DNA of 21,076 bases from Planctomycetota bacterium (GTDB lineage: Bacteria; Planctomycetota; B15-G4; SIAN01): positions 1-21,076 of the forward strand of contig JANNXA010000006.1 in NCBI GenBank assembly GCA_031409275.1, in the 5' to 3' direction. Below, one piece after another: positions 1 through 20,302 of this stretch (positions within the stretch are counted from its first letter, which is position 1; every line of letters starts with the position of its first letter). The translations under genes and the position numbers were made by a program. The notes below the pieces were generated by a model, which did no database searches, had not been told where the DNA came from, and saw nothing but the letters and a program-made list of their open reading frames with translations.

Positions 1-567
1 CGCCTCGACCGTGCCGCGTTCGAGTTCCAGCTGATAGGCACCTTCGCGGGTGCGATCGCCGTGTCCCGGGGCCACCCGCAACCGCGTCTGCTCCGACAAC
101 TCGAGCCAGCCGACGTCGCCGACGCGCACGCGCGCGCTCGCTCCGTCACCGCAGACGATGCGGTCGCCGACGCTCAGCGTTTCGGCCGCCGCCTCCGTCG
201 AGCGCTCGCCCGATTCGATGCGCACCCCGCCCTCATGGCGCGCGATCGCGACATCGACGGGGACCGCCGTCGATGGCGTGGCGCCGCCTTGACCGAGCGA
301 CGGTCCGCGATCGAGCACGCGCCACGTCACCCACGATGCGGCCAGCAGCATCGCGGCGGCCGCCGCGCGCATCGCGAAGCGGCGCCATCGCGCGGGCGAT
401 CGCGGCGCGCGAACCTCGTCGCGATCGTCCTCGCGTTCCAGCGAGTCGACGTCGAGCGGCGCCAGTGCGCGCGCGCGCAGCGGTGCCAGCCGTCGTTCGA
501 GATCGGCGACTTCCAGCTCGGGTGTCGCCGTCGGGTCGAAGAGATAGTCGTCGCGCGGCTCGCTCAT
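1..567 (-). CDS. FecR-like transmembrane anti-sigma factor (N-terminal part; runs off the window)
   Basis: Absent from the ORF track because it has no stop inside the window. The ATG at 567..565 overlaps the sigma-factor TGA (ATGA). Manual translation: MSEPRDDYLFDPTATPELEVADLERRLAPLR...RWRRFAMRAAAAAMLLAASWVTW (basic residues then a TM helix)...LSVGDRIVCGDGASARVRVGDVGWLELSEQTRLRV...YQLELERGTVEA. The last part matches the FecR beta-sheet pattern. It lies directly downstream of an ECF sigma gene. Confidence 0.85.
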   Translation of the reverse strand, partial: MSEPRDDYLFDPTATPELEVADLERRLAPLRARALAPLDVDSLEREDDRDEVRAPRSPARWRRFAMRAAAAAMLLAASWVTWRVLDRGPSLGQGGATPSTAVPVDVAIARHEGGVRIESGERSTEAAAETLSVGDRIVCGDGASARVRVGDVGWLELSEQTRLRVAPGHGDRTREGAYQLELERGTVEA

Positions 568-1145
568 TGATGCACTCCACCGCGCAGTCGCTCGCGCAAC
601 AACTCCATGCCACGGTGCAGGTTGACGCGCACGGAGCCGTGCGTGAGCCCGGTCGCCGCCGCGATCTCCGGTCCCGAGAGTCCTTCGATGAGCCGCAGCG
701 CCAGCGTCTCGCGGTAGGCCTCCGGCAGCGCACGCAGCGCGCTCAACGCCTCCGCCCCTTCCGCCGCGAGCTGGGCGTGAAGCTCGGCGCCGGGGGCGGC
801 CAGGCTTTCCGGCAACGACTCGCGCGGCATCGCCTTGCGCGCTCGCCCCGCCAACGACCGGCTGATGGCGAAGAGCCAGGCGCCGAAGCGCTCGGGCTCG
901 CGCAACGCCGCGCGCGCACGCCACGCCTGCAGGAAGGTCTCCTGCAGCAGGTCGTCCACTTCACGCAAGGGCGCATGGGCGAGCAGCAGCGCCCGCACCG
1001 CTCGCGCGAAGCGAGCGTGCAGTTGCGCGAAGGCCGTGCGGTCGCCGGCGCAGGCGGCTCGCGCCAGGCCGACCACCGCATCGCCCTCAATGATCGCGGC
1101 GGGCAGCGTCACCGGCGACCGCGGCACGCATCGACTCGAGGTCAT
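564..1145 (-). CDS. ECF-type RNA polymerase sigma-70 factor
   Basis: Region 2: GDRTAFAQLHARF...VDDLLQETFLQAW...FGAWLFAIS. Region 4: ALRALPEAYRETLALRLIEGLSGPEIAAATGLTHGSVRVNLHRGMELLRERL. The start is uncertain (ATG 1145, GTG 1127 or GTG 1112); the track's 1262 start overlaps the upstream gene too deeply. Confidence 0.93.
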   Translation of the reverse strand: MTSSRCVPRSPVTLPAAIIEGDAVVGLARAACAGDRTAFAQLHARFARAVRALLLAHAPLREVDDLLQETFLQAWRARAALREPERFGAWLFAISRSLAGRARKAMPRESLPESLAAPGAELHAQLAAEGAEALSALRALPEAYRETLALRLIEGLSGPEIAAATGLTHGSVRVNLHRGMELLRERLRGGVHQ

Positions 1146-1617
1146 GCTGGCCCACGAAGACTCCGAAGGTGGAAACGAGGTTGCGTTCGAGCAGGGGCGC
1201 GGGTGCGACCATCGCATGGCGAAGGTGCGCGCGCCAGTCCCCGAGCGCACTGCCGCCTTCACCGTGATCGATGTTCGCGGTCTGGAACGCGACCACCGCC
1301 GATTCGAGCACCGAAAGCAGCGGCTCCCAGCTCGTCAGCTGCGCCGCACCGGCCGGCCCCGCTTGCGGCTCACCGCTCGAGTGGATCGCCATCGGCAGCT
1401 CGGCGGCGGTGACCTTCGATTGGCAGTCGACCCCTTCCGCGAATGGCAACGGAGTCGCGTCGGCCACCTCGATCTCGAAGCAGATCAACGGCGCGCCCCG
1501 CGCCGGCGCGACGGTGCCGACCGGCGCTGCCGAGGCGGCGGCCAGTGCGCTTGCGCTGCACGCGAACGAGATCGCGATCCAGCGCAGCGATGGAGAGATG
1601 GGCCTATCCCTCGTCAC
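1087..1617 (-). CDS. Secreted hypothetical protein (~176 aa) in the ECF operon
   Basis: The GTG at 1617..1615 overlaps the upstream TGA (GTGA). It has a signal-peptide-like N-terminus (LRWIAISFACSASALAAASA) and GC-rich third codon positions. Motifs GAPLICFEIEVADATPLPF and HLRHAMVAPAPLLERNL. Its stop overlaps the start region of the sigma gene. Confidence 0.7.
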   Translation of the reverse strand: MTRDRPISPSLRWIAISFACSASALAAASAAPVGTVAPARGAPLICFEIEVADATPLPFAEGVDCQSKVTAAELPMAIHSSGEPQAGPAGAAQLTSWEPLLSVLESAVVAFQTANIDHGEGGSALGDWRAHLRHAMVAPAPLLERNLVSTFGVFVGQHDLESMRAAVAGDAARRDH

Positions 1618-2525
1618 GAGTCGACTTGGCTCACCGAGATCGACAGCGGCGAAAGGACGCCGCGCAGCCGCGTCGCGAGGTTGGCACACGGCTCCTTGGT
1701 CCAGACCATCAGCGTCTCTCCGTCGCCTCCAGGCGACCACGCCAACACCTGCTCGAGCGACGCGATCGCTTCAGCGACCGGTTGCCACTGCGACGCCGCG
1801 AGCGGAGCTGCGAGCGTCACCGTCGCGCGGGCGGCGCTCTCCGGCCACTCGACCAGCCGCGTCGACTCGGCGCGAACTCGGCTCGCGGTCGCGCGTGGCG
1901 ACGCGCTCGCCAGCGCCTTCGCCAGCGTCGCTTCGAGCTCCGTTGCGGTCGGGGGCGGTGCCGCGAACCGGCCACGCGCCTTGCCATCGGCGCCCACTCG
2001 CCACTCGGTCGCGGCCGGCAACGCGGCGGCGAGCTGCAATTCCAGCGCACCGCACGTCGCCTGGTCGAAGCGAGCGTCGCGTGCCAGCAGCTCGATTTCG
2101 AGCTCGACGACGGAGCGGGTCGGCGGGGCGCCCGACGTGAACCCTTCGCCCGCGAACCCCGCCTTCTTCAGCGCCTCGATCACCTCTCGCTCGAGCAGCG
2201 TGGCGCCAGCGGTCATGGAGATCGTCGCCGTCTTGCAGTCGAAGACGAGGCTCGCGATCCCTTTCAGCGTCGACAAGGCCGCACGGACCTTGGGGCCGCC
2301 GCTTCAGCCAACGCCCGGGATCTTCACCGTGTAGGCCGCGCTGGCGCCCGCCTTGACCGCCGGAGCCGCCGGCGCGGCTTGCACCTGCTGCTCATCGGGA
2401 CTGATCGCGCGCGCCTTCGTGCACGCCGACCCCGCGAGGCAACACCCAAGTGCGAGCAGCACGCCCGAGCGAACCCCGGCACGCGTGCCGCGACTCAACT
2501 GCCACTTCGACGACTGGACCTGCAT
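1614..2525 (-). CDS. Candidate exported selenoprotein with an HMA (heavy-metal-associated)-like domain; in-frame TGA at 2306..2304 (codon 74, putative Sec); ~303 aa
   Basis: Track ORFs 2304..2615 and 1614..2276 share one frame. Read through, it gives AYTVKIPGVG-U-SGGPKVRAALSTLKGIASLVFDCKTATISMTAGATLLEREVIEALKKAGF, an HMA-type pattern with the TGA at the first Cys of GMxCxxC. ATG 2525 has GAGGAG upstream; an alternative in-frame ATG is at 2585. The N-terminus is signal/lipoprotein-like (VLLALGCCLAGSAC). A SECIS-like hairpin follows the TGA. Confidence 0.75.
2266..2303 (-). promoter_or_regulatory. Putative bacterial SECIS element
   Basis: mRNA right after the UGA: AGCGGCGGCCC CAAGG U CC GUGC GG CCUUG UCGACGCU. 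The upper stem CAAGG/CCUUG + CC/GG begins after an 11-nt spacer, has a bulged U, and closes a loop starting GU. A lower stem pairs AGCG with CGCU and CGG with UCG. Folded by eye. Confidence 0.65.
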
Positions 2526-2738: not shown

Positions 2739-5700
2739 TCACGGCACGAGGACGCCGAACCAGCGCAGGCTGTTGGCGGCGCGGCCGGTGACCTGCAGTT
2801 CGACGGAGTGGCCGACCGGGAGGAGTGCGGCGGGGAGCGTCAGCGTCATGATCCCGGTGGCGTCCTCGCTGTTGGCGGCGCGGCACTCGAAGTCGAGCTC
2901 GACGTCGCCATCGGCGGAACGCCAGCGAGCGTCCGTCCGGATCGCCTCGAAACCGAGCCACTCCTTGCCATCGAGCGCGAGCGTGAAGCCGGCTCCCGGT
3001 TGCGAGCAAAGGCCCATCGCCGCCGCGAAGCGCAGGCGCACGCGCGACGCGTCACCCGCCAGCGGCTCCGCCGCGCCCGTCCTCCAGCGCACGCTGCCGG
3101 TGCCGTCGAGCTGCCGGCAGTAGTGCATCGGCACGACGCCGAGCCAGCTCGGCTGCTGGAAGTCATCGAAGCGCGCGAGGAGCCGCGCGAAGCCGTTCAG
3201 CGGGCGAGCCGCGAGTTCAGCGCGCGCCGCCGCGATCTGTTCCGGGTTCATCGTGCCGAGCGCGATCGGTCCGCTCTGCAGCCACGCGATCAGGTCGGCG
3301 AGGTCCTGCGCCGCGAGCCCTTCCTCCAGCCCATCCGGCATCAGCGAGAGCTTCGAGGCCTTCACCTCCTTCACGTCTCGACGTGCCAGCACCCGCTTCA
3401 TGTCGTTCGCCTGCAGCAAGGTGAACCCGCCGCTCGACTCGCCGCGGATCAGGCCGGAGAGGTCGCTGCCGTCGTGCAGCACGACGCGGTAGTTGACGTA
3501 CTCGCCATTCACCGCGGCGTTCGGATCGAGGATCGATTCGAGCAGGCGCGGCGCACTGCGATCGCCGAGCGCGGCGAGGTCGGGACCGACGCCGAAGCCG
3601 GTGCCGCGAAATGAATGGCAGCTCGCGCACAACTTGGCGAAACGCTCACGCCCGCGACCGAGATCCCCTCGCAGCTGCAGCGCTGGCTGGAACTGCGCGA
3701 TCACCTGCGCGCGCTTGGGAGTTCCGGCGGGCGCAAGCAGCTTGCCCACGCGCTCGCGCAGCCCCGCGTCGTCGACGTGCAGCAACTGCTCGCGCGCCGC
3801 CGCATCGAGCAGCGTGCGCGACACGGCGCCCGACTCGAGCGCCGCGACCAGATCGACGCGCCACTCGGCCCGCGACAGCAGCAGCGCCAGCGCCTGGCTG
3901 CACAACTGCGGGAGCATCCGTGGCAACGCCTCGAGCAGCAGACCCTGCAGCGGCAGGTCGGTGCGACGAGCGAAGGCGTCGAGCACCGCGTGACCGACGT
4001 CGACCGGCTGCGTCGGGTCGAGGAATCGGGCGAGAGGGTCGAGCAGGTCGAGGCCGCCTTGGTCGAGCGGCGCGGCGCCGCCCTGCCGGAAGAAGAGTGC
4101 GAGCGCGGCGGTCGCGGTCGGCGCGTCGATCTCGTCACGCTTGAGCGCCTCGACCGCAGCGCCGAGCATCTCGGTCAACCGCTCGTCGAGCGCGAAGCCG
4201 CCCGCTGCGAGCCGGCGCGAATCGTCGCGCGCACACGAGTCGACGAACCAATGCTCGTCCGCCAGCTCGCCGTGGCTCTCCATCCCTTGCAGCAACGGCG
4301 CGACCGCGCGCCAACGCCACACCTCGCTTGCCGCCGCATCGTCGTGGCCGACCAGCGCATCGAGCACATGAAGCTTCTCGTGGTGGGATTCCGGCGGAAG
4401 CGCGCCCGCCGTCGTGACGACGGCATCGAGCGCCTGCTGTTGCGCCGACGTGCGCTCCATCACGGCGAGCAGCGCCTCCAGCAATGCCGCGGCGTGGATC
4501 GGCGCCGCGCTGATGGCCGCCGCGCGGATCCACGGATCGTCGGCGTAGGCAACGATCGCCTCGCCGAGCAGCGTGCCCGCGAGGCGGGTCTTGCACTCGC
4601 CGAGCGCCATCACCGATGCCAGGCGCTCGGCGCGCGTTGGCTCGAACGAGGCGCGCGGTGCGGCGCCGTCGGGCAGACTCGTATCGAGCTCCTTCCAGTT
4701 CGCGGGCGTCCAGACGCTCCATTCCGTCACTGGAACGGGCGGCGCCATCGATCCACCCACGTCGTTGGCAGCGCTCGATTCTTCCGTCAGCGCGACAAGC
4801 CATCGCTCGGCCAGCGGCATGCAGGCGGCACGCACGTCGGGCAGCTGGTTCAGCGCTAGCAGATCGCTCACGTCGTCTTCCGCGAGCCATCCCAGCTGCT
4901 CGAAGCACCACGCCTCCTGCACCTTCGCTGCCGGAGTCCGAGCGCGCTGCTTCGTCGCGAGTTGGGCGGCGGCGCGCGCCCCGAAGGAGTCCGACGCACC
5001 GCGCTCCGACTTCGTCACCTTCGCCAGCAGCTCGCGATGCGCCAGATCGCGGACGACGCCGTTGTCGGCGACCAACGCCTCGCGCAGCTCGCTCACGCCA
5101 GTCGCCGCGAGGTCGGCGACCTTGCGCAGCGGCGCCCCCTTCTTCACGACGCGCCACAGCCGTCCCATCGTCGCACCGGCGCGCACGTCGAGTTGCGCGA
5201 GCTTCGCGGCCGGGATCCAGCGCGGGTGCTCGATCACGAAGCGGTACATGTCGACGATCCACAACGCGCCATCGGGCCCGGTCGTCGCCTGCACGGGCCG
5301 AAACCACGGGTCGCGGCTCGCAAGGAACTCGCGCTGCTGCTCCTCTGGCGCGCGCCGTCCGGTGGCGCAGGAGCCGTCGCGATCGAGCACGGTGCGGCGC
5401 ACGACGTTCGCCACCGGTTCGCAGGTGAAGGCGTTGCCCTGGAACTCCGCGCCAAGCCACGTATCGCGGTAGATCCCGAGCCCGCACGCCGCCGTCACTC
5501 GACTGGCATCGCCGGCATCGTTGAAGCGCTCGAGCACCGTGCTGATCTGGAAGAGGCCGCGCGGATCCGCGTCCGCCAGCACGTTCCAGCGCGGATCGAG
5601 CGGCGCGACGAACGGGTTGCGGCGAAGCACGTGATCGGCGAGCGGGAACTGGAAGAGCAACCAGCTCGAGTCGCAGCCGAACCAGCGGCCGAAGTCATCG

Positions 5701-8540
5701 CGCACGCGACCTTGCTGGCTCGTCCCCTCGATCGCCTCGATCACGCCGCGCGCCGGGTCGATGCGGAAGTCGCGGCCGCGGCAGTCGACGGGCGCGAGCG
5801 CCAGCGGCGCGGCGCCGCCCGAACGCCCGAGCGCCTCGTGCTTGAACCCGGTGATCTCGCCGCCGAACAGCCCGCAACTGCCGTAGATCCAGCCGTCGAG
5901 CCCCCACGAGAGCGAGTTGACGCGCGCCTGGTAGTTCTCCGTCGAGAAGCCGGTGAAGAGCACCTGCCTCACGTCGGCGCGACCGTCGCCGTCGCTGTCT
6001 TTCGCGTAGATGACGTCGGGCGCTGCGCAGATCAACGCGCCGCCCCTCCACGCCATGACTCCGGTCGGGAACGGCAACCCCTCCACGAAGACGCCACTCG
6101 CCTCGTAGCGTCCATCGCCGTCACGATCGCAGAGCCACGTCACGCGGCCACCCGGCGCGTAGTTGCCGTCGAGCCCGGTCGGGTAGTCGTTCATCTCGCA
6201 GACGTAGACGGTGCCGTCGGCCGCGAAGTCGATCGCGACCGGGCTTTGCACTTTCGGTTCGCATGCGACCAGTTCGATGGCGAGATCGTCGCGCGACAGC
6301 TCGAAGTGGCGCTGCGAATCAGCGGCGCTCTTCGCACTCGGAAAGCGCGGATCGTCCTCCACTGCCGCGAAGCCGTCGGGCAGCAGGCGATGGACCGCGG
6401 CCACGAGGAGCGCCTCGACGCCGCTCGCCAACGGGCCGGGCCGCCCGTAGTAGGTCATCGCGCCCCCCGCTTCGTAGCCGCCTTCGCGCAGGATGCGCTC
6501 GCTCGGGATGTAGCACGGCACGTCGTTGCTGTAGGCACTGATCCAGAGACGCTCGCGGTCGAGCTCGCGCTTCAATCGCAGCGAGTAGTCGACCACCACT
6601 TCGCCCGGCAGGTAAAGCTGCGCGAGCGCGTCGCCCCATCGCCACACCTGCACCGAGTAGGGCAGCGCCGTCGGCAGCGTCTCGCCCCGATCCAGCCGCG
6701 CGAGCCACTGCGCCGCATGGAAGCCGATCGCCCCGCCCGCCTTGACGCGAGCCTCCCACTCGGCGCGCGCCGGGAGCGGCGCATACGGCAACTCGAAGCG
6801 CTCGATCGCGACGGTCGGCGCACCGCCGTCGCGCAACAGCGGCACCAACGGCCCTGCCAGCAACCGCTCGACTTCGTCGGCGACGCTCTTGCCGTGGCGT
6901 TGCGCGACCCGCAGGTCGGCGGTCGGGCCATCGAGCGGATTGGAGTCGGCACCGCAGCCGATGACGGTCAACGCCACCGCGTCCGCGTGGGTCGCCTCGA
7001 TCGCTTCCGACGCGTAGCCGGCCCAATCACCGCAATGCTGGTTCACCGCGCCGTTGCAGGTGGTGCAGTGGCAGGCGTAGTTCTGCAGCGTGGCGAGCAA
7101 CGAGCCGTCGGTGCGGAACGCGGCCAGCAGCGGCAGCGAGTGGTCGACCGGCCCGCCGACGTTGCGACGGTTGCGCGCGAAGGTGACGCTTCCCTCGCTC
7201 CAGGCAAGTTGCGCCGGCACGCGCGCCGCGACCGCCGCGAGCGCCGCCTCCTCCATGCGATCGACCAGCCAGGCGCTGTAGCGCTCGATCCGCTGCCACT
7301 GATCGGCGGGGATCGGCCGCCCGAACATGCAGTCGATGCCGCCGTCGAGCACCGGCGTCGTATGGGAGTGGGTGACGCTCAGCGTGAATCGCTCGCGCGC
7401 GAGTCCGACCTTCGCCGCCAGCCGCGTCGCCACGGCATCGGTCATTCGTTGCGGCACCGCCGTGTTGTCGAGCGCAAGCTGTACGGCGAGCTCCGGCCCA
7501 TCGCCGATGGCCAACGCGCGCACGAAGAGCGGCTGCGCCGCGCTCGTCGCTTCCAGCTCGCGCGAGGCGTAGCCGCAGAGGCGGATCGGGAAGTCGGGAG
7601 TCACGTCGACCTTCGCGGCACCGACCGGCACGGTGGGCCGCCAGAGGTCGGCGAGCCCACCCGGCAACGCATGCAGCGCAGCGACTTCGGTGTCGCTCAA
7701 CGCGCGCTCGAACCAGGCGACCTCGTCCATCCAGCCCACGTAGTTGAGCCCCAGCACCACTCGCTGGTCCGGCACGTTCCAGGTCCACGTCTGCGTGCGC
7801 GGCGCCAGCGTCGCAGCGAGCGTTCCGTCGAGGTACATCCGCGCGACGCCATCGGCCGCGCCGCTGTTGAAGCGTTCGAACGCCAGAACCACATGCGTCC
7901 AGCGCTCGCCGAAGAAGTCGTCCGCCGCGACCTGCGCCAGAGACTTCTCCGCGAAGGCGAGCGCCTCCCAAGGCTTGCTCGAGGGGTTCCAGACCGCGTG
8001 GTCGGCGTAGGCGCCCATGCGAAAGTGGCGGAAGTCGGCTCGCTTCTCGAATTCGCAGAAGAGGCCGGCGTCGTTCCAATCCTTCGCGGTGACGGTGATC
8101 GGGTCGCAGAAGCCCTCCGGCAGCTCGCCCTGCGGCGCGGCGCGCAGCCAGAAGGAGAGCGTCCCGCTCCAGTCGCGCGCGCGCCACGGCGTATTGCCCT
8201 CGCCGTGGAAGAAGAGCAGCTCGTCGGTGCGGCGATGGAAGCGCAGCGCCTGCCCGCGCAACGCGCCGCGCCGCTCGCGTGTGACCGCGCCGCTCTCGAC
8301 GAGGCCGGGTTCGCCCACCCGCGGCGGCCCCCAACTCGCTCCGTGGTGGAGACGGCCATCGCCGCGCGCGACGTCGGCGTCGAGCCCCGCATCGAAGGTC
8401 GCCGCGAACGTGAGCGACTCGCGCAACGCCGTGCGGACCGGAGCCGCTTGAGCCGCGGCCCGCTCGCCACGACCTGCGATCACGAGCAACGACGCGAGAG
8501 CTGCCGAGTTGGCGACGCGCAGGGCCTTGGGCCACTTCAT
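2739..8540 (-). CDS. Giant secreted fusion (~1933 aa): LamG-like jelly-roll + neutral/alkaline ceramidase-like domain + PVC-type membrane-bound dehydrogenase beta-propeller + HEAT-like repeats + cytochrome c (CxxCH) + extra C-terminal domain
   Basis: Signal peptide MKWPKALRVANSAALASLLVIAG with GGGAG upstream. LamG-like: GTLSFWL...WTHVVL...MYLDG...YVGWMDEVAWFERALSDTEVAAL. Ceramidase-like: GAAKVDVTP...LCGYASR...THSHTTP...NYACHCT...GEVVVDYSLRLK...YIPSERILREGGYE. TIGR02604-like: ELVACEPKVQSPVAIDF...GLPFPTG...WGLDGWIY...WFRPV...GPDGALWIVDMYR. Heme domain: CASCH at 3615-3629, then VGPDL and SLMPDGLE. Confidence 0.92.
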   Translation of the reverse strand: MKWPKALRVANSAALASLLVIAGRGERAAAQAAPVRTALRESLTFAATFDAGLDADVARGDGRLHHGASWGPPRVGEPGLVESGAVTRERRGALRGQALRFHRRTDELLFFHGEGNTPWRARDWSGTLSFWLRAAPQGELPEGFCDPITVTAKDWNDAGLFCEFEKRADFRHFRMGAYADHAVWNPSSKPWEALAFAEKSLAQVAADDFFGERWTHVVLAFERFNSGAADGVARMYLDGTLAATLAPRTQTWTWNVPDQRVVLGLNYVGWMDEVAWFERALSDTEVAALHALPGGLADLWRPTVPVGAAKVDVTPDFPIRLCGYASRELEATSAAQPLFVRALAIGDGPELAVQLALDNTAVPQRMTDAVATRLAAKVGLARERFTLSVTHSHTTPVLDGGIDCMFGRPIPADQWQRIERYSAWLVDRMEEAALAAVAARVPAQLAWSEGSVTFARNRRNVGGPVDHSLPLLAAFRTDGSLLATLQNYACHCTTCNGAVNQHCGDWAGYASEAIEATHADAVALTVIGCGADSNPLDGPTADLRVAQRHGKSVADEVERLLAGPLVPLLRDGGAPTVAIERFELPYAPLPARAEWEARVKAGGAIGFHAAQWLARLDRGETLPTALPYSVQVWRWGDALAQLYLPGEVVVDYSLRLKRELDRERLWISAYSNDVPCYIPSERILREGGYEAGGAMTYYGRPGPLASGVEALLVAAVHRLLPDGFAAVEDDPRFPSAKSAADSQRHFELSRDDLAIELVACEPKVQSPVAIDFAADGTVYVCEMNDYPTGLDGNYAPGGRVTWLCDRDGDGRYEASGVFVEGLPFPTGVMAWRGGALICAAPDVIYAKDSDGDGRADVRQVLFTGFSTENYQARVNSLSWGLDGWIYGSCGLFGGEITGFKHEALGRSGGAAPLALAPVDCRGRDFRIDPARGVIEAIEGTSQQGRVRDDFGRWFGCDSSWLLFQFPLADHVLRRNPFVAPLDPRWNVLADADPRGLFQISTVLERFNDAGDASRVTAACGLGIYRDTWLGAEFQGNAFTCEPVANVVRRTVLDRDGSCATGRRAPEEQQREFLASRDPWFRPVQATTGPDGALWIVDMYRFVIEHPRWIPAAKLAQLDVRAGATMGRLWRVVKKGAPLRKVADLAATGVSELREALVADNGVVRDLAHRELLAKVTKSERGASDSFGARAAAQLATKQRARTPAAKVQEAWCFEQLGWLAEDDVSDLLALNQLPDVRAACMPLAERWLVALTEESSAANDVGGSMAPPVPVTEWSVWTPANWKELDTSLPDGAAPRASFEPTRAERLASVMALGECKTRLAGTLLGEAIVAYADDPWIRAAAISAAPIHAAALLEALLAVMERTSAQQQALDAVVTTAGALPPESHHEKLHVLDALVGHDDAAASEVWRWRAVAPLLQGMESHGELADEHWFVDSCARDDSRRLAAGGFALDERLTEMLGAAVEALKRDEIDAPTATAALALFFRQGGAAPLDQGGLDLLDPLARFLDPTQPVDVGHAVLDAFARRTDLPLQGLLLEALPRMLPQLCSQALALLLSRAEWRVDLVAALESGAVSRTLLDAAAREQLLHVDDAGLRERVGKLLAPAGTPKRAQVIAQFQPALQLRGDLGRGRERFAKLCASCHSFRGTGFGVGPDLAALGDRSAPRLLESILDPNAAVNGEYVNYRVVLHDGSDLSGLIRGESSGGFTLLQANDMKRVLARRDVKEVKASKLSLMPDGLEEGLAAQDLADLIAWLQSGPIALGTMNPEQIAAARAELAARPLNGFARLLARFDDFQQPSWLGVVPMHYCRQLDGTGSVRWRTGAAEPLAGDASRVRLRFAAAMGLCSQPGAGFTLALDGKEWLGFEAIRTDARWRSADGDVELDFECRAANSEDATGIMTLTLPAALLPVGHSVELQVTGRAANSLRWFGVLVP

Positions 8541-8573
8541 CACGCACTCCCTACGACGCCGATGCGCACGACC

Positions 8574-8603
8574 TTGGACGGCCGAATCGAGGAGGCGTAC
8601 ACT
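8574..8603 (+). promoter_or_regulatory. Candidate sigma-70 promoter for the FHA gene
   Basis: TTGGAC (8574-8579), an 18-nt spacer, then TACACT (8598-8603), in the divergent intergenic region ~75 nt upstream of ATG 8681. Confidence 0.35.
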
Positions 8604-8680
8604 CCCGCCCTCCTGCGAAGGCGTCAACTGTCGTCCCCCGTGAAGTGCTGCGCGCCGCGCCCTGCGCCCCGGAACCTGCG

Positions 8681-9565
8681 ATGACCGAGCAAGACCTCGC
8701 CGCCGCCCTCGAGATCATCAAAGGATCGGAGAGTGGCCGACGTCTGCCTCTGTCGGCCGGCACCACGACGCTCGGCCGCGTCGCTGGCAACACCCACGTG
8801 GTCGTCGACTCGACCGTCTCGCGCCAGCACGCCAAGGTCTTCACGCGCGACGGCCGCCACTGGATCGCCGACCAGAACTCGAGCCACGGCACCTTCGTGA
8901 ATGGCGCGAAGATCACGCTGCAGACGCTCGCCGATGGCGACGAAGTGCGTCTGGGCACCACGGTGATGCGCTACGTCGCGACGCAAAAGCAGGTGCCGGC
9001 GGCCCCGCCCGCTGCGCCGGCGCTCTTTCCTGCGGAAGCGCCCACCGGCTCCTTCGAGCTCGAACTCCCCGACGCGGAGGAGCTCGCGCCGCGCAAGCCC
9101 GCGGCCACCGGTCCGGTCCCGCCAAGCCAGCTTCCACCACCCGCTCGCGAGCTGCGCGCGCTCACCGAGGCGGGCGAAGATCCCTTCGCCGACGAGGCGA
9201 AACCGGCCGCGAACAGCGCCCCTTCGATCGAGCTGCGCGGCGAGACGGCGCGCCACTTCGCCTCGCGATCGAGCGGGCAGCCGGTGCCGGCCGCTTCACC
9301 GAAGGCGCAGACCGCTCACGTCCCACCGCCGATCGCCAAGCCGCCGCGCTCCCGCGGCCCGTTCTCCTTCGTGCGAGACGAGCTCGATCAGCGCGGGCCC
9401 GCCGCCCGCATCGTGGCGCTGCTCTTCGCGATCGGCGCGGCGGCGCTGCTCTTCTGGCTCACGCTGCGCGCCTTCGACCTCGCGCCGAAGCACGCACCCG
9501 ATGCCACCCTCGAAGAGGAAGCTCCAAGCGGCCCGTCGCGCCCGATCCTGCCGACCCGCCGCTGA
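8681..9565 (+). CDS. FHA domain-containing membrane protein (~294 aa)
   Basis: N-terminal FHA motifs: TTLGR...VSRQHAKV...WIADQNSSHGTFVNG...LADGDEVRLG. Then a Pro/Ala-rich linker and a C-terminal TM helix IVALLFAIGAAALLFWLTL. ATG 8681 is preferred over the track's 8645. Confidence 0.9.
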   Translation: MTEQDLAAALEIIKGSESGRRLPLSAGTTTLGRVAGNTHVVVDSTVSRQHAKVFTRDGRHWIADQNSSHGTFVNGAKITLQTLADGDEVRLGTTVMRYVATQKQVPAAPPAAPALFPAEAPTGSFELELPDAEELAPRKPAATGPVPPSQLPPPARELRALTEAGEDPFADEAKPAANSAPSIELRGETARHFASRSSGQPVPAASPKAQTAHVPPPIAKPPRSRGPFSFVRDELDQRGPAARIVALLFAIGAAALLFWLTLRAFDLAPKHAPDATLEEEAPSGPSRPILPTRR

Positions 9566-9592: not shown

Positions 9593-11545
9593 TCACTTGC
9601 GAAGCATCTTCGCGGAACCGTGTTCACCGAGGCATCGCGCTCGCACGACGATGGAGTGCGTGCCGGGCGGCACGACCACGCCGCACAGATGGCCGAAGGC
9701 CGGCGCGATCGAAACGGCAACGCCATCGAGCTCCGCTTCGAAGAGGCGATGCCAGCGCCCCAGATCGCCCGTGACCCAACGCAGCGGATCGGCCACGCGC
9801 AGATAACTGCCGGCGACGACCAGGAACGCCATTCGATCGACCGCGACCGTCGCTCGAACCTGCGGATCGAAGAGTCGTGACGACGTCGAATCGTTCACGG
9901 CGTCTTCGACCGGTTCGAGCGACCATTCGAGCGTCGATGTCGGCAGGTGATCGCCGAGTCCCTCGACTCGTTGTTCCACGAGCACATGCTCCTGCGGATC
10001 GACGAGTTGCCGCACGCGTTCAAGGAGAGCCTCCTCGAACGCGAGGTCCGCGAACACGTCACCATCGAGCGGCCGCGACACGACCTCCACTCCGCCGGCG
10101 AGGAACACCGGCGGCAAGGGACGACGAAGACCGAGCGGCGCGTCCGTCGCGCGGGCGATGAACCGCTCTCCGTCCCACTCGAACGGAACGCGCGCGGCGC
10201 CCGGCACCTCCTCCAACGGCACCATCGAGAAGTAGCCGGTGGCCGTGCATAGGGCCGCGTCGTTTGGCGGCGGAACGAGCATGGCACGGGTGAGCGCGGG
10301 CTGCAGCGAAAGCACGACGTCGTGCAGGTATGCCGGTGCGTTGATGTAGCGGATGCGATCGAGGTCCTTCAGGGAGGGAGCCGCGGCACGCACGCCCTCC
10401 GCGACCTGGCGTGCTTCTCGATTGGCGCTCGCCAACGCGTCGAGACGCGACTCGGCCTGCGTGAAGAGAATCGCCGCGAGAGCGATGACGCTGCCGGCGC
10501 GGGCCACCACGACGACCCTGCGACTCGGGCGACCCGATCGGCACGCCAGCCGCAAGAGCCCCTCGGGCACGGCCGCCGCGAAGAGCAACGCCGAAAGCGC
10601 GTGGGCGAGCAGCGCGTAGCGATCCGTGTGGCCGACAACGGCGAACGGAAAGCAGGTGGCGACCGTCAGCAAAGCGAGGAATCGACACTGCCGCGTCCGC
10701 CACGCTCCCAGCGCGATGAGGAGCCACGCGATCCACGAGATCCACGGCGCGCCGGTCAGCAGATCACCACCGAGGCCACCCTCGAGGTAGTGAGGGACCA
10801 CGTTGCGCACACATGCCCACAGGGATCGCAGCGAGAGTCGCTCGGAACGGTCAGCCGCAACTCCGCCGACTTCGAGCCAGTGCAGATGGATGAAAACCAG
10901 CAGCGCGACCGGCAGCAGCAGGAGGAGCGCATGTCGGCGACGCACGGCAAGGCTCGGCGGCACCAAGCAGAGCAACGGCGGCAAGAGCGCGAGCGGCCAT
11001 GGAGCCTCGCTGCTGGCCAGGCCCATCACCATCCAAACCAATCCGCGCCACGCGAAGCCCCCCCCCCCCGCGCGCGAAGAGCGGATGAACTCCGTGGCTG
11101 CCAGCAACGTGAATCCAACGCCGAGTGACCACGAGGCGGCGACGGGCCACGCCGCGGTGGTGACATTGGGCGGCGCCAACAAGAAGAGCAGCACCCCACC
11201 CGCAACGGTGCGACGCGGGAGCGCAATCGAGCGCCCGAAGCGGGCCAGCGCGAATGCCGCGAAGGCGAAGGCTGCCAGCGCCAACGCTCGCAGCCCCACG
11301 TCGTTTCCGCCGGCGAGCCGATCGACGCCCGAATGCAGCAGGTGAAACAGCGGGCGCCAGAAGGAGTTGATCACTTCCGACTGCGACGGCAGGAAGAGCT
11401 CGGCGGTGGAGAGCAGTCGTGTCTTTGCGCGGATCGGGTAGCTGTCCAGCAGCGTCGGCTCGAACAGGAAGCGGCCAGGCAACGCAGCGATCGCCACCAC
11501 GACCAGCAGGCCGAGCGAAAGCCGAAAGCGGTTCTGTCGTGTCAT
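9593..11545 (-). CDS. Polytopic membrane protein, GT-C-fold (PMT/ArnT/YfhO-like) glycosyltransferase candidate (~650 aa)
   Basis: ATG 11545 overlaps the helicase TGA (ATGA). A first TM is followed by a loop with LLDSY and FWRPL, then many hydrophobic segments and DRYALL. The C-terminus is YfhO-like: FLVVAGSY...AELDGVAVSIAPAFGHLCGVVVPPGTHSIVV. The family assignment comes from motif resemblance only. Confidence 0.65.
   Translation of the reverse strand: MTRQNRFRLSLGLLVVVAIAALPGRFLFEPTLLDSYPIRAKTRLLSTAELFLPSQSEVINSFWRPLFHLLHSGVDRLAGGNDVGLRALALAAFAFAAFALARFGRSIALPRRTVAGGVLLFLLAPPNVTTAAWPVAASWSLGVGFTLLAATEFIRSSRAGGGGFAWRGLVWMVMGLASSEAPWPLALLPPLLCLVPPSLAVRRRHALLLLLPVALLVFIHLHWLEVGGVAADRSERLSLRSLWACVRNVVPHYLEGGLGGDLLTGAPWISWIAWLLIALGAWRTRQCRFLALLTVATCFPFAVVGHTDRYALLAHALSALLFAAAVPEGLLRLACRSGRPSRRVVVVARAGSVIALAAILFTQAESRLDALASANREARQVAEGVRAAAPSLKDLDRIRYINAPAYLHDVVLSLQPALTRAMLVPPPNDAALCTATGYFSMVPLEEVPGAARVPFEWDGERFIARATDAPLGLRRPLPPVFLAGGVEVVSRPLDGDVFADLAFEEALLERVRQLVDPQEHVLVEQRVEGLGDHLPTSTLEWSLEPVEDAVNDSTSSRLFDPQVRATVAVDRMAFLVVAGSYLRVADPLRWVTGDLGRWHRLFEAELDGVAVSIAPAFGHLCGVVVPPGTHSIVVRARCLGEHGSAKMLRK
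11058..11069 (-). repeat. Homopolymer G12 tract (C12 on +) inside the membrane glycosyltransferase-like CDS
   Basis: The + strand reads gaag-cccccccccccc-gcgcg. On the minus strand it reads GCG GGG GGG GGG GGC (A-G-G-G-G), currently in frame. Confidence 0.9.
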
Positions 11546-14500
11546 CGCGGCGCGGGTCGCACGACATCCTCCGTCAGCTCGCAGCGCCCCGCGGCGGCGA
11601 GGTCGACCAGCGTCGCGCGAAGTAGCGCGCGCGTCTTCGACTGGACCGACCTGAAGCCCAGCAGGCGCGCCGCTGCGGCAGCCACGTCGTCGGCCGCGCC
11701 GCCACCGCCGGCGGCCAGAACGTGGAGCAGCGCGTTGGCACGCTCCTCGGGCGCGATCTGCTCGGCAGGACGGGGCGCCTCTTCTGGCGCGGCCCGGCGC
11801 ACGAGCGTCCACGCCTGCGGATCGATCGCGGCGGACCAGACGAACTCGCCGCGCCGCTGCAGCCGACCCGCGGTCGCCAACGCGGCGAGGCGCGCCTCGA
11901 GCTGCTCCTCGATGGCGCCGCTCATCCGGCTGATGCCGAGGCAGCGAGCGGCTCGCTGCAGCAACGGCTTCTCGTGGAGTGGCGCTTCGGCATCGACGAT
12001 CCGCAGCAGCAACTCCTCCAGACGTAGCGCCGCGCCCGGATCGTCGAGGTCGGCGCGCGTGCCCGCGACGACAACTTCGAACGAGCGGTAGAGCGGCGGC
12101 TCGGCGCCCGCCGGCACGCCCGCAGCAGCAGCGGACACCGTCGACGCGGGCTCCACCACCGGCGGCGCGGGGAGCGGTGCCGACGCGACCACGCTTGCCC
12201 TCGTCGTGGGCGACGCCGATGCGCTCGCCGCGCGCTCCTGCGCCGCCTTCGCCGACTCCGCCTCGTGCTCCGCCTTCTCGACCGATTCACGCGCCTCGCG
12301 CAGCGCAGCCTCGACGCGCTCGATCTCCTGCACGCGCCGCTCGCTCCAGTCGGAGGACCAGATGCGATGGATGCGCCAACCCAGCCCCTCCAGCACCGAC
12401 TGGCGCAAGCGGTCGCGATCGCGCGCGGTCGCACCGGAGTGGTAGGCGGCGCCGTCGCATTCGATGCCAAGCCAATGCGAGCCCGGCCGCTGCGGATCGC
12501 GGATCGCGAGGTCGATGCGGTAGCCCGAACAGCCCACCTGCAAGTCGACGTGATGGCCGCGCTCCTCCAGCGCGCGCGCCACGTCGCGCTCGAGCTCCGA
12601 CTCGCAGGCGGACTCCGCGTCGACGACAACCGCCGCCGCCAGCGCGATCGCTCCGCGCTGCGCGTAGTCGAGGTAGTCGCGCAGATGGCGCACGCCTGGC
12701 GCAGCGCTGCGCGAGAGGTCGATCTCGTCGGCGCGCAGCGAAGAGAAGACCACCAGCCGCTCCCGCGCGCGCGTGATGGCGACGTTCAGCCGCCGCTCGC
12801 CGCCGCGCTTGTTCAGCGGGCCGAAGTTCATCGACAAGCGCCCCTGCGCGTCCTTCCCGTAGGTGATCGAGAAGAGCATCGTGTCGCGCTCGTCGCCCTG
12901 CACGTTCTCCAGGTTCTTGATGAAGAGCGGCTCGCCGCGCGCGCCACCTTCGGCGAACGGCTGCAGTTCCTGCCGTTCGAGCAGCGCGGCGTCGAGCAGG
13001 TCCTCGATCAGCTGCTGCTGTGGCTGGTTGAAGGTGACCACGCCGATCGATTGATCGCGACGCTGCGGATCGGACAGGGCGGCGACGATCCACTCGACGA
13101 TCGCCCGCGCTTCGGCTTCGTTGGTGCGCCGTCCCGCCTTGTCGTAGGTGCCGCCGACGGCGACCAACGAGACGCCGAGTCCTTGCGCGCGGCCAAAAGC
13201 CGCTGGAAAGGTGTGAAGGCGGCTGCCGTAGTAGTGGCGGTTGCTGAAGGCGATGAGGCTCTCGTCGCGACTGCGGTAGTGCCAGCGCAGCGGCAGCGAC
13301 GGCACCCCGGCCGCCTGCGCCTCTTCGAGGATGCTCTCGAGGTCGCGCACGAGCCCACCATCGGGGGCATCCGCCGCGACCTCTTCCTCCTCGTCGTCGG
13401 CCAGCGCCCGCTCGAAGAATGCGGTGGGCGGCAGCTGCTTGTCGTCGCCGACCACGACCACGTGGCGACCGCGGGCCAACGCGCCGATGGCGTCGTGCGT
13501 CGGGATCTGCGACGCCTCATCGAAGATCACCAGGTCGAAGAGCTCGCGCGAAACCGGCAGGTATTGCGCAATCGACTGCGGGCTCATCAGCAGGCACGGC
13601 TTGAGCTGCGCCAGCAGCGTCGGGATCTCGGAGAGGAGCCAGCGCACCGACTTCTGGCGCCGCTTCTTCTTCGCCTCGCGCTGCAGCGCCTCCACTTCCG
13701 ATCCGGAGAAGCCGGCGTCGGCGCGCAGCGTCCGGCGAGCCCCCCACTCGGCGACCACGCGTCGCCCTCCCGCGGCGATCAAGCGCGCATCTTCGACTCG
13801 GAACTGCAGCGCGCGTGCGTGGTGGCGCGAACCGTCGAAGTCGCGCAGCGCGGGTGCGGCGCCGATCGCATGTTCCGTCACCGTCGTGAAGAAGGCGCGC
13901 TCGAACGCGGCGGGTGCGCTGGCAGGCGGAAGTTCATCGCGGCGCACCGCATCGACGATTGGCGCGAGTTCGAGCGCGCGCGCGGCCCCTTCGGCACGCA
14001 CCAGGCGCGCGTGGGCGCGCAGCTCGGGCAATCGCGCGAGCCAGAGCTCGGCGGTCGAGCGCGCGAAGCTGAAGCCGTCGCGGGCGCTCGCGAGCCCGGC
14101 GCTCCACGAAGGCGCGACCGCGATCGCCGTCACCAGCGCCGCCAGCGCCGATTCGAAGCGGGTGAGCGCGCCCTCGAGGGCGGTGGCCGTCGCGTCGGGC
14201 GTCGAACCCAACGCGCGCATCGCCGGCGGCGTCGTGATCCCGGCCGCATTCCACTGCGGCACGAGCGCGCGCCAACGATCGAGGAAGTCGGCGACCTGCT
14301 GCAGCGCCGCGGGCTCTGTCGCGACGCCGCGCGCCGCAGCCCCAACCGTCGCTTCGAGGAACGCCGCTTCATCGGCGAATCGTCGGGCGCGCGCGACCAC
14401 GGCGAGCGCTCCCGCGAGGTCGGCGCGCGTGACCTCGACGGTCGGCGCCTTGCCGCGCAACGCGGGCGTCAACGTCGACCAGGCGCCGCGCAGCTTGAAC

Positions 14501-17500
14501 CAGCGCATCGGCGCGATCGCGTCGCCGTGTTGCGCAAAGTCGCGAGCGAGTGCGGCAACGTCGAGCTCGAAGAGGCGCTCGCTCCAGCGTGGAGCGAGCC
14601 GCTCCCGCTCGGCGCGGTCGGCCAGAAGCTCACCGGCCAGGGCCCGCAGCCGCGCGATCACCTCGCCGAGGTCGCTGCGAGTCGCGCACTCGGCGGCACG
14701 GCCCGGCAGCGGCGCCGCCAGCAGTCGCAGCGTGGCCAGCGCGACACGCGCCGCCGGCAACCCCGGCGGAACGACGACGCCAAGCGCCGCCGCGGCGGCA
14801 TCGAGCGCGCGCTTGCTCGCTTCGAGCTGCGCGAGGAACTCCCGCAACAGCGACTCGCGTTCGCGCGCCTGAAGCGGCGTGTGGTCGACCGCTCCGCACT
14901 GCGCGAACGGGTGGCTCGCCAACGGGCCGCTCATCGCCGCGACGGCGGCCGCGGCGGCCAGTTCGGCGACCGCCGCCCGACGCTCTTCGTAGCCGCGTCG
15001 ATCCACCTCCAGCGGCGCGCGCAGCGGCAAGGGCGGCAGCGTCGCGGCGTCGCGCTCGCGCACCATGCGGCCGAGGCATTCGAAGTGGTTCATCCCCAAC
15101 GGCCCGCGCCGATGGAGCGCGGCCGCGTACTCGTCGAGCTCGCGCATCAGCTTCTCGGCGCGCTCGGCCAGCAGCGGATCGTCCTCGCGTCGGACCACTG
15201 GCGCTTCGTCCAGCGTGCGCGCCAGCTCGCTGATCACCTCGTGCTTGGCCGCCCGCTGCGAATGGAGTTCGAGGCAGGCGCTCGCGAGGCCGGCGCGCCG
15301 CAGACGGTTGGCCACCACTTCGAGCGCGGCACGCTTCTCCGCCACGAACAGCACCCGTTTGCCGGCGGCGATGCAGCCGGCGATGACGTTGGCGATCGTC
15401 TGCGACTTGCCAGTGCCAGGCGGACCTTGCAGCACGAAGGTGGCGCCGCGCACCGCCGCTTCGATGGCGACGAGCTGGCTCGAATCGGAATCCAGCACGA
15501 CCCGCGCCTTCGTCGGCGGCAGCACCTCGTCGAGGCGACGCGCATCGACGAACGCGGGATCGGGCAGCGCGCCGCCATCGACCCGCTTCACCAGATGGCG
15601 CACCAGCTCGCTTTCGAGCAGCGCTTCGGAGTTCTCCTCGAGGTCGCGCCACAACAGGTACTTGGCGAACGAGAAGAAGCCAAGCCGCGCCTCCTCCACG
15701 ACGGTGAAGCGCGGCACGCGCGAGACCAGCAGCTTGAAGCGCGCCAGCAACTGCGCGACGTCGACGCCGTGGTCATCCTGCGGCAGCGCGCGCAACGGCT
15801 CGGGGTCGATGTCGAGCTCGCTCTTCAACTTCTCGAGCAGCGCATCGTTCAGGCGCGGCTCGTCGTCGCGCAGCTTGAGCGTGAAGCGGCGGGCGAGACC
15901 GCGCCGCTCCAACGTGACCGGCAGCAACAGGATCGGCGCGAGGCGACGCTGCGTGCTGGCGGGCGACTCGAACCACTCGAGGAACCCGAGTGCCAAGAAG
16001 AGCGTCGAGGAGCCGGTCTCCTCGATGTGGGTGCGGTCGTCTCGAAAGAGCGTCAGCAGTCGCGTCTGCAACTCGTCGAGCGGGTGGCGGGTGAGCAGCG
16101 CCCCTTGCGCGAGGAGATCTTGCTGCTCGGCGGCGATCACTTCGGTGGCGCCGCGCGCGGCGGAGAGCTCCGCGGCGCGCGGATCGGCGGCCGCAAGCAC
16201 GCTCTTCGGCGCGAAGTCGAACGTGCCACCGTTTGCCAGATGGTCCTCGATCGCGGCCAGCGAGCCCGCTTCGAGCACGACGCAGCGCTTGCTGTCGCGC
16301 CAGTGGATCAGCCGGTTGCGCAGCGACAGGTCGAGGAGCTGCTGCTTCCATTGCGTGAGGCGATCGGTGAGCGGCTTGTGGAGCGGCAACGCGCCATCCG
16401 CTTGCGTCACGCCCGGCGTCGCGCGCTCCTCCGCCGCGGTGGAGGCGTCGTGGGGCGCGAGCACGGCGCTGCCCGGCGTCGGCAGCGGCACGATGCCGGC
16501 ACCGCGCGCCGCCTTCACGTCGACCACCTTCTGGAAACGCTCCGGCGCGTCGAGCAGCGCGTTCGCCGCGGCGACCGCCGCATCGAAATCTCCGCCGCTG
16601 ACCAGCACCGTCGGATCGATCCAGAGCAGATCGCCCACTTCGACCAGCTTCTTCACCGTCGCGAGGTGGTCGATCGTGACGCACGGAAATTGATCGGCGA
16701 TGCGCCACACGCCGACGACCGCGTGCCCCTCCACTAGCATCAGCAGCGGATGAAGACCTGCCTGTTCGAGCATGGCCGCCACCAGCAGCGAGAGCTCGAT
16801 GCAGTTGCCCATGCGATGGGCGAGGAGCTGCTGCGGCAGTCGCAGCTTCTGCCCCTGCTTCTCGAAACTCGCCGGCAGCGCGTGGTAGGTGAGCTGCTGC
16901 GCGGGCAACGTCTCGGCCAGCGCGCGCACGACCGCATCGACCCGTTCGCGCCCGCCGCGCGGGTAGCCGGGGAACGACGGATCGCCGGTCGCCGCCCGCA
17001 GCCGGTCGCGGGCCGCGGCCAGCAGCTCGGCGACGGCGGGGTCGTTGGGCAGGACGAACGCGGCGAGCAGTTCATCCGCCAGCGAGCGCGTCCATTCGTT
17101 CCACGCCAGGATCTCGAGCGGGAGTCGCTGCCGTGCGAGGATCGCGAGTCCGAGACGCAACTCGACATGGAGCGCGCCGCTCGCCCGCTCCAGCAACGTC
17201 GCCAGGCGCGGGCGATCGAGCGCGACGTCGGGCGCGTTCAGCGTGTACGTCGCGCCGGGCTCGAGACGCGGCAGCGCGAATCGAGCGGGCGGGCCGAAGT
17301 CGGGGCCGACCTGCAGGCGCAACTCGAGCCCTTCGAGCGCCTGCGCGCCGCGGTTGGTGATCGCAACCGATTCGACCAGCGGCACGCCGTTTCGCTCGGC
17401 AGCGAACTGCAAGCGCGTGGCGTGGCGCACCTCGAGCTCGACCCGCGGTGCGACGTGGTCCGGTGCCGCGGGCTTCGCCTCCTCGCCGCGATCGCTCGCC

Positions 17501-17940: not shown

Positions 17941-19113
17941 TCAGCGACGCGCGAGTTCGCGGCGCCACAACCCGGCCAGCGCATCGGCGGCGTCGCGCCA
18001 CGTCCACGGATCGGGCACCACCAACGGCACCCGTTGCGCCGGCGCTTGCGTCGTCGCGGCGAGCGTCGCCATCGCCGCGGCCCACGCCCGCGGCTCGACC
18101 GCTGGCCGGACCAGCGCCGCCACGGTGGCCTTCGCGGCGGCGGCGGCGTCGATGGACGGCAGCACCGCGAACGGCGGCAGCGGTCGCACGATCACCGGAA
18201 GGCCCATGGCCATCGCCTCGTAGATCGGCAAGCCGAACCCTTCGTAACGCGTCGGGAAGAGCATCGCGACCGCGTGTTGCAGCAACGTCGCGAGCTCGCC
18301 TTCGCTGGCGCGACCGACGAATCGAACCTGATCGGCGATGCGCAGCGCGGCGGCGCGCGCCTGCCACGTCGCCAGGTCGCCACCGCCGACGATCACCAGC
18401 GGCAACGACGAAGCGGGCCCACCGGCGGCCTTCAGCTCGGCCATCGCTTCGAGCGCCAGCTCGATTCCCTTCCGCGGTTCGAGGTGGCCCACCGCCACGA
18501 AAAAGCGGCCGCTCTGCAGCGCGTGGCGCTGCAGCCACTCACCAGCGGAGGCGGGATCGAGCGGCGTCGGAGTCGCGACGTTGGCGTTCGCGATGCAAAG
18601 GACGCGATCGGGCGGCAACTCCAGCACTTGCGCCAGTCGCGTTGCCGCCGGCGGCGACACCGTCACGACCCCCGCCCAGTGGCGCGCCTGGCGCGGGATC
18701 CAGTGGCGCGCGGCGACGTAGCGCGGCAGCCAACGCAGCAGCGAGGCGTTCGTGGCGGTGCGCGGCTCGGCCCAGCGCGCGTCGTGGACGGTCACCAGCG
18801 CCGGTACGCCGGACGGGCCGCACGGCGGCACCGTCTCCGAATGCCACAAACGCGCGCGTGCCGCGAGACCCGTCGCAGCGCCGCCGCCGCGAAGGCGCTG
18901 CAAGGAGCGGCGCCACGGCCCGCCCGCCGGTGCCACCTCTTCGATCTCGACACCACCCACCGCCAGCCCATCGAGCAGCTTGCTGCCGCGGGCGATTCGC
19001 ACACCGAGCGGTGGCGCCTCGTCGACCGCGCGCCACTCGCCGAGCCACCCTCGCAGCCGTGTGCGCGCGCCGCTGGCGAAGTCAGGCATCCCGGAGGCGT
19101 CGACCACGATCAT
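17941..19113 (-). CDS. Glycosyltransferase family 4 (GT-B fold), ~390 aa
   Basis: ATG 19113 overlaps the upstream TGA (ATGA). Motifs: MIVVDAS, LVTVHD, VVTVS, VGHLEPRKGI, FPTRYEGFGLPIYEAMAMGLPV. Confidence 0.93.
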   Translation of the reverse strand: MIVVDASGMPDFASGARTRLRGWLGEWRAVDEAPPLGVRIARGSKLLDGLAVGGVEIEEVAPAGGPWRRSLQRLRGGGAATGLAARARLWHSETVPPCGPSGVPALVTVHDARWAEPRTATNASLLRWLPRYVAARHWIPRQARHWAGVVTVSPPAATRLAQVLELPPDRVLCIANANVATPTPLDPASAGEWLQRHALQSGRFFVAVGHLEPRKGIELALEAMAELKAAGGPASSLPLVIVGGGDLATWQARAAALRIADQVRFVGRASEGELATLLQHAVAMLFPTRYEGFGLPIYEAMAMGLPVIVRPLPPFAVLPSIDAAAAAKATVAALVRPAVEPRAWAAAMATLAATTQAPAQRVPLVVPDPWTWRDAADALAGLWRRELARR

Positions 19114-20219: not shown

Positions 20220-20228
20220 GAGGGGCGG

Positions 20229-20234
20229 ATGGTA
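20229..20234 (-). promoter_or_regulatory. Candidate -10 element (TACCAT); near-leaderless GT4 transcript
   Basis: TACCAT lies 9 nt upstream of ATG 20219, and there is no Shine-Dalgarno sequence in between. Confidence 0.4.
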
Positions 20235-20302
20235 GCTCGCGGTCGAAGTTCGGCCCGCCGTCCGATCCGCAGACTCTTCCGATGAATGTGTCGTCGCGTC
20301 CG

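Follow-up and report, generated by a model that had tools for sequence, protein, structure and literature searches.

A conserved stem-loop resembling a bacterial SECIS element follows an in-frame UGA in a gene for a predicted exported three-repeat HMA protein of Planctomycetota

The locus and its predicted protein

The window, i.e., the whole stretch of 21,076 nucleotides analyzed here (contig JANNXA010000006.1 of the Planctomycetota assembly GCA_031409275.1, positions 1 to 21,076), harbors on its minus strand an open reading frame which extends from an ATG at position 2525 to a TGA at 1614 and which contains, as codon 74, an in-frame UGA (2306-2304) predicted to specify selenocysteine (Sec). 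This UGA is followed by an 11-nt spacer and then, at 2292-2274 on the same strand, by CAAGGUCCGUGCGGCCUUG, a hairpin consisting of the arms CAAGGUC and GGCCUUG and the loop CGUGC. The UGA, the spacer, and the hairpin letters, as reported in a sequence-only reading of this DNA, were confirmed on the minus strand. A promoter and terminator scan of positions 1400 to 2800 found none, and an Rfam scan of positions 1500 to 2800 returned no match at an E value of up to 1. No RNA run was listed among the sequencing runs that contain the locus. The UGA was fully covered in only one run, and because this is a possible source run, the coverage does not constitute independent support.

Between the upstream gene and the putative selenoprotein gene lies a REP-like inverted repeat (2628-2739), whose 37-nt arms are 81% complementary and 38 nt apart; its 20-nt core occurs in 47 copies in the genome (with at most 2 mismatches), often as inverted or tandem pairs. 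The upstream gene itself (2739-8627, minus strand) encodes a 1962-aa product with laminin-G, ceramidase-like, DUF7133, and cytochrome c domains, and a DUF7133/cytochrome c gene is also located upstream of the homolog at two other loci (L027 and L068). At the contig end, which truncates it, the region 1-1262 (minus strand) carries an ECF sigma factor gene with a 4-base overlap with a downstream membrane-anchored ORF, the latter resembling anti-sigma factors of the FecR type. The remainder of the window includes a gene for an FHA-domain protein (8645-9565, plus strand), a gene for a 2116-aa protein with DUF4011, AAA helicase, MTES_1575 nuclease, and DUF3320 domains (11542-17892, minus strand), which is possibly a defense gene, and two GT4 glycosyltransferase genes (17941-20330, minus strand).

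Read through the UGA, the gene (1614..2525, minus strand) would encode a predicted exported selenoprotein of 303 amino acids with three HMA-fold repeats. Its sequence begins with a predicted signal peptide (2421..2525) ending in a lipobox-like Cys35, and a loose lipobox pattern of our own design matches 25 of the 32 distinct N termini. HMA-like repeat 1 (residues 64-132; 2130..2336), delimited by Pfam and by a structural model, contains both Sec74 and Cys97. Pfam family PF00403 aligns with residues 66-124 (E = 7e-5; 23.5 bits, with a gathering cut-off of 24.8), the UGA falling inside this match, where the HMA metal loop has its first cysteine, and a weak match to MerP (E = 0.07) was also obtained for this repeat. 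The loop reads USGG, and the second cysteine of the CxxC motif is absent at the sites examined. Cys97, within a DCK motif (2235..2237), is invariant in two alignments and is placed by the model in the β2-β3 turn. HMA-like repeats 2 and 3 (1620..2120) lack Sec, and this region carries a conserved Cys280 within an EPC motif (1688-1686). None of Sec74, Cys97, and Cys280 varies among the 8 closest sequences. A tblastn search with the protein against its own genome returned no paralog.

An AlphaFold2 model of residues 63-303 displays three β-α-β-β-α-β repeats (pLDDT 90; pTM 0.74), the predicted structure showing the ferredoxin-like fold that characterizes HMA domains. Foldseek matches include ATP7B, CopA, and MerP, in addition to efflux-pump domains of similar topology. 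The predicted protein shares the β-α-β-β-α-β fold of the MerP, CopZ, CopA, and ATP7B domains (PF00403), with a target TM score of 0.77 and an rmsd of 2.6 between MerP (1osd), which is likewise exported, and the model. It differs from these domains in that CxxC is replaced by U-S-G-G and in that repeats 2 and 3 are devoid of loop cysteines.

The proposed Sec-Cys site and related HMA proteins

Sec74 would stand where the HMA metal loop has its first ligand, and Cys97 in the neighboring β2-β3 turn would substitute for the missing second cysteine of CxxC. In the HMA topology this turn and loop 1 lie at a common end of the fold, and Cys97 is thus likely to be the partner of Sec74, their nearness in the predicted fold being deduced from topology. 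We take Phe38 of MerP, which we assume to lie beside the metal site, to be the equivalent of Cys97; a pairwise alignment puts that Phe two residues earlier than Cys97, and a literature search located no paper on MerP Phe38. Together, the two residues might form an extracytoplasmic two-ligand Se/S site for soft metals, e.g., Cu(I) or Hg(II), a proposal to which we assign about an even chance. If Sec74-Cys97 is indeed the site, it would represent a new ligand arrangement on the classic metal-chaperone fold.

Relatives of the protein were sought with a profile. Of 401 genomes of the phylum that were sampled, 73 matched it, many of them with one to three in-frame TGAs, the weak hits including ordinary Cys-type HMA proteins; the exported HMA-fold selenoproteins to which the gene belongs are accordingly a widespread group. 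The 30 best loci mostly encode exported proteins with one to three HMA repeats, the first ligand being specified by a TGA. Among 38 hand-listed Sec sites of this wider family, 27 have a CGUG loop, at 18 nt (6 sites), 21 nt (9), 24 nt (10), or 27 nt (2) from the UGA, and it is absent at the other 11; its distance shifts with codon insertions in the metal loop. At the same 38 sites, a near second Cys or Sec was found at 25, a turn Cys at 2, neither at 11, and both at none, as would be expected if one replaces the other.

A rival view, which concerns only the product step of the favored explanation and takes the SECIS as real, is that the protein is a redox catalyst in which Sec74 attacks the substrate and Cys97 resolves, perhaps with a relay to Cys280. 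The joint conservation of these three residues is in keeping with such a role, as are the affinities of 20 other Sec candidates scanned in the genome (13 matched thiol-redox families in Pfam, 2 matched FG-GAP/ASPIC, and 5 gave no hit) and the flanking ORFs, among which (35 of 71 scanned) no metal-transport family was identified and none was shared beyond close kin. However, metal-chaperone ancestry is suggested by the HMA fold and by the numerous relatives whose loops read GMT-U-x2/3-C/U, and the mutual exclusion of the near second Cys/Sec and the turn Cys at the 38 listed sites argues in the same direction. We therefore favor the Se/S soft-metal site, at about even probability, and regard the redox relay as a tentative option with roughly a one-third share of our confidence.

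Several members of the wider family carry more than one such site. Eight loci (L044, L045, L048, L052, L055, L056, L057, and L061) encode exported tandem-HMA proteins with two or three in-frame TGAs, most of these TGAs being followed by a hairpin of their own, while some tandem-HMA loops contain two TGAs 3 to 4 codons apart which seemingly share one hairpin. At L047, near positions 1737-1740 (minus strand), repeat 2 of an HMA-like gene contains two TGAs in direct succession, and downstream of them lies an 8-bp hairpin whose loop is GUC. With up to three putative SECIS elements per mRNA at spacings of 18 to 27 nt, the family would offer a test set for the spacing tolerance of SelB and for the bacterial decoding of several UGAs within one gene.

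With regard to catalogued families, the protein resembles NF041115 (UxxU metal-binding) and NF045683 (MerT/CopZ-like selenoprotein) in carrying Sec at the first HMA-loop ligand, and it differs from both in the lack of a second loop Cys or Sec, in its three repeats, in its export signal, and in the extra Cys97 and Cys280. No relevant model of NCBIfam 20.0 matches the protein, and neither NF041115 nor NF045683 gave a hit at an E value of up to 1. Multi-repeat relatives reach up to 71 bits on NF041115, and the relatives remain below the cut-offs of 95 (NF041115) and 375 (NF045683). Membership of NF041115 was rejected, the loop being USGG rather than UxxU or UxxC, as was that of NF045683, which has a cut-off of 375 bits and a MerT-like membrane part. 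The HMA-related selenoproteins given in Table 1 of PMC13188914 are a UxxC ATPase, a UxxU metal-binding protein, and a mercuric transport protein, and that table holds no selenoprotein of the present three-repeat architecture. A literature search returned no paper on the family, which BSepDB or the supplements of papers could contain. The SECIS is apparently an ordinary element of known type, and the selenoprotein subfamily is apparently uncatalogued. It is, with a probability close to one half, a Planctomycetota subfamily with a rewired HMA site of loop-1 Sec and turn Cys, formed by an exported lipoprotein which would trap or shuttle Cu/Hg or relay redox equivalents to the third Cys. The value of the locus is carried more by the unmasked gene than by its hairpin.

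Structure and conservation of the stem-loop

Numbering the U of the UGA as +1, the 5′ arm of the upper stem spans +15 to +21 (2286..2292, minus strand) and its 3′ arm +27 to +33 (2274..2280), enclosing the apical loop CGUGC at +22 to +26 (2281..2285), 18 nt after the UGA, in which G23 and U24 correspond to positions 2284 and 2283. Both arms are supported by folds, by an alignment, and by RNAalifold. An optional lower stem pairs 2303-2296 with 2273-2266 (feature 2266..2303). The hairpin is present in every fold starting at the UGA and is absent from the minimum-energy fold of an 81-nt context; the minimum free energy is −15.6 kcal/mol for 41 nt and −7.8 kcal/mol for the 19-nt hairpin alone.

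The sequence-only reading had cautioned that hairpins form easily at such a GC content, and the caution was well placed. Hairpin energy did not differ significantly from that of dinucleotide shuffles (z = 0.25, −0.40, and 1.39 for three minus-strand spans), so that single-sequence stability constitutes no evidence, and in this genome of 69% GC as many as 407 of 3000 random TGA triplets (13.6%) pass a consensus SECIS test, here our own implementation of published criteria. A CGUG loop on a stem of at least 6 pairs, a motif defined after the hairpin had been seen, follows only 69 of the 98,772 TGA triplets of the genome. The proposed comparison with synonymous recodings gave a divided outcome: 6.9% of 5000 recodings fold the segment +13 to +36 as stably as the real sequence, whereas the pairing probability of the specific helix (0.90) is reached by only 2 of the 5000. 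By itself, then, the hairpin proves little, and it is its conservation among sequences that decides.

Homologous loci were gathered in several ways. A search of 61 genomes produced 10 matches, namely, the gene itself, 7 full homologs, each with a single TGA at codon 74, and 2 others, namely, a spurious hit and a TGA-containing gene for a distant HMA protein. Scans with a peptide pattern located at least 21 codons downstream of the UGA, and thus outside the hairpin, yielded 12 loci in a genome collection (11 of them titled Planctomycetota or a family within it) and 22 loci in metagenomes. In total, 36 loci were examined, comprising 22 metagenomic and 14 genomic loci, the present one included and duplicate fetches of the same genes omitted. 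The codon at this site is TGA at all 36, which represent 24 distinct 45-mers with the gene itself among them, and the same stem-loop is present at every one, as the sequence-only reading had asked of TGA-bearing homologs; both features are retained while the protein diverges to about 30% identity. Counts over these homologs overstate independence, since the sequences are kin. No Cys-coded version of the exact three-repeat subfamily was encountered among the loci examined and 150 listed library hits, Cys forms being seen among more distant HMA proteins, and a comparison of Sec with Cys sites was uninformative because it caught only 2 “Cys” sites, one of them spurious.

For the alignment, 20 sites (14 close and 6 more distant with the same spacing) were used, 18 of which are distinct. 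Within these 18 sequences the 7-pair helix with its 5-nt loop is paired in 92.9% of 126 cells, and its covariation, a check which the sequence-only reading had called for, amounts to 0.334, compared with 0.209 in shuffled alignments (none of 500 reached the observed value) and no more than 0.106 upon sliding of the helix. RNAalifold returned the 6-pair core +16..+21/+27..+32 alone, and pair 15-33 is unpaired in 7 of the 18. The sequence-only reading had modeled U20 as a bulge; in the gene itself, U20 instead pairs with G28 (probability 0.73, compared with 0.27 for the bulged register), and pair 20-28 is a standard pair in all 18 sequences (UG in 8, CG in 5, and UA in 5). The bulged register was rejected, its pair 21-28 being broken in 5 of the 18. 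The lower stem of that same model does form in the gene itself, where most pairs have probabilities of 0.74 to 0.92, but it is not conserved, only 50% of cells being paired across homologs, and a conserved lower stem was consequently rejected. Given the invariable pairing of U20 with G28 and the half-paired lower stem, U20 is regarded as paired and the lower stem as incidental. The working core therefore appears, from the aligned sequences, to be a 6-bp stem (+16..+21/+27..+32) with the loop CGUGN, requiring neither a bulged U nor a lower stem. The homologs thereby indicate which features appear to be needed in this lineage, i.e., a perfect 6-bp stem and a CGUG loop, the bulge and the lower stem appearing dispensable.

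A large part of the stem falls on positions 1 and 2 of the codons for a conserved helix, KVRxAL. The hairpin could be a side effect of the conservation of the peptide KVRAAL in DNA rich in GC, with the UGA perhaps read as Sec by way of another signal. The energies indistinguishable from shuffles and the 6.9% of equally stable synonymous recodings are compatible with this explanation, as are the predominantly nonsynonymous stem positions and the scarcity of two-sided changes, which affect only 2 of the 7 pairs and do not exceed the shuffled level (273 of 500). However, the invariant positions in the 24 distinct homologs (+18..+25, +27, +29, +30, and +32) comprise loop bases C22, G23, U24, and G25 and also the silent positions +21, +24, +27, and +30, which are fixed against codon usage. 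Within the hairpin, Val is encoded by GTC and Arg by CGT, the codon that supplies G23-U24, in 24 of 24 homologs; elsewhere in the same genes CGT accounts for 6.5% of 306 Arg codons, TTG for 7% of 443 Leu codons, and GTC for 63.5% of 498 Val codons. Where the same peptide motif recurs in the later, Sec-free repeats, CGT is used in none of 19 instances. Furthermore, pair 17-31 (AU in 12, GC in 2, UA in 2, and unpaired in 2 of the 18) is altered at both of its bases in 4 of the 18 sequences. When each homolog was recoded in 300 trials, the observed pairing was reached in at most 5% for 20 of the 24; one homolog (L033) folds otherwise, with a pairing probability of 0.01 in its 45-nt context. An origin of the hairpin as a mere by-product is, therefore, considered very improbable.

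Bacterial SECIS elements conform to a consensus (PMC13188914) of a 3- to 9-nt loop, an upper stem of 4 to 16 bp, a G at loop position 1 or 2 with G or U as the next base, a UGA-to-loop distance of 16 to 37 nt, and a minimum free energy of −7.5 kcal/mol or lower. The present element, located within the coding region directly 3′ of the in-frame UGA, agrees with it in its 5-nt loop, its 6- to 7-bp stem, its C22-G23-U24 bases, its 18-nt distance, and its energy; it departs from none of these published features, and its lower stem is not conserved. Compared to the E. coli fdhF SECIS, whose key bases are U17, G23, and U24 (PMC8659212), the upper stem likewise begins 11 nt after the UGA and G23 and U24 occupy identical positions. 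It differs in having a perfect stem of another sequence closed at +21/+27 and in lacking a bulged U17, position 17 being a paired A, so that the analogy to the fdhF bulge drawn by the sequence-only reading does not hold.

Decoding of the UGA

The genome, which is 93% complete, encodes a tRNA-Sec (76 bits; anticodon UCA) together with SelA, SelB, and SelD, all over their cut-offs. The selD gene contains an in-frame TGA of its own, followed by a 9-bp hairpin with the loop GUU. Of the 10 carrier genomes tested, 9 have a SelB that exceeds its cut-off; SelA was found in 54 of 61 relatives, for which reason co-occurrence says little. A second match over the tRNA-Sec cut-off (G000:C50:268209-268302; 49.2 bits) is presumably a long-arm Ser or Leu tRNA.

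The view of the sequence-only reading that this is a functional SECIS which supports Sec decoding is borne out by a UGA and stem-loop conserved at about 30% protein identity, by fixed synonymous codons, by compensatory changes, and by a full set of Sec genes. The stem-loop at +15 to +33 is very probably a bacterial SECIS, through which the UGA would be read as selenocysteine via SelB to give one predicted exported protein of 303 amino acids. By analogy with E. coli, the SelB·GTP·Sec-tRNA(Sec) complex would bind the 5-nt loop a short distance 3′ of the ribosome, with SelB recognizing G23-U24, and would compete with release factor 2, the UGA then being read as selenocysteine. In this manner the hairpin would restore a gene which public annotation interrupts at the UGA, and two annotated fragments would become one predicted protein.

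Least probable of all is that the UGA is a true stop (in a pseudogene or between two small genes) or a tryptophan codon, for even though databases call only the downstream part (public calls for the family start after the UGA, and the alignments of 23 among the 24 top library hits begin no earlier than profile position 22, the UGA being position 12) and several more distant library proteins have W at the UGA site, TGA is maintained at all 36 loci despite protein divergence, it takes the place of the first Cys in the HMA motif and lies inside the Pfam match, and 1633 of the 1953 long ORFs of the genome end with it. As the main stop, TGA is no general Trp codon, and a Trp code was rejected. The library proteins with Trp at the Sec position (P0027, P0046, P0049, P0054, P0060, P0065, P0066, P0067, P0071, P0079, P0080, and P0090) are probably cases in which a gene-calling program applied code 4 to a TGA, as deduced from the TGA found at the related loci L058 and L062-L064.

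A genome-wide scan listed 50 read-through candidates. From these data 25 Sec-candidate sites were hand-picked, comprising the gene itself, SelD, and further sites, the majority of which have Cys-like redox motifs. In the comparison with other Sec sites of the genome proposed by the sequence-only reading, a G[G/U] loop occurred at 25 of the 25, the scan having required the loop G and not the base after it, and CGU occurred at 5; one unrelated gene carries a CGUGA loop at the same 18-nt spacing. The genome contains about 25 in-frame TGA sites with hairpins (L090-L109 and others), indicating a large selenoproteome, with candidates including AhpC/Prx, TlpA-like (4 copies), thioredoxin-like, MsrA, glutaredoxin, and CMD proteins.
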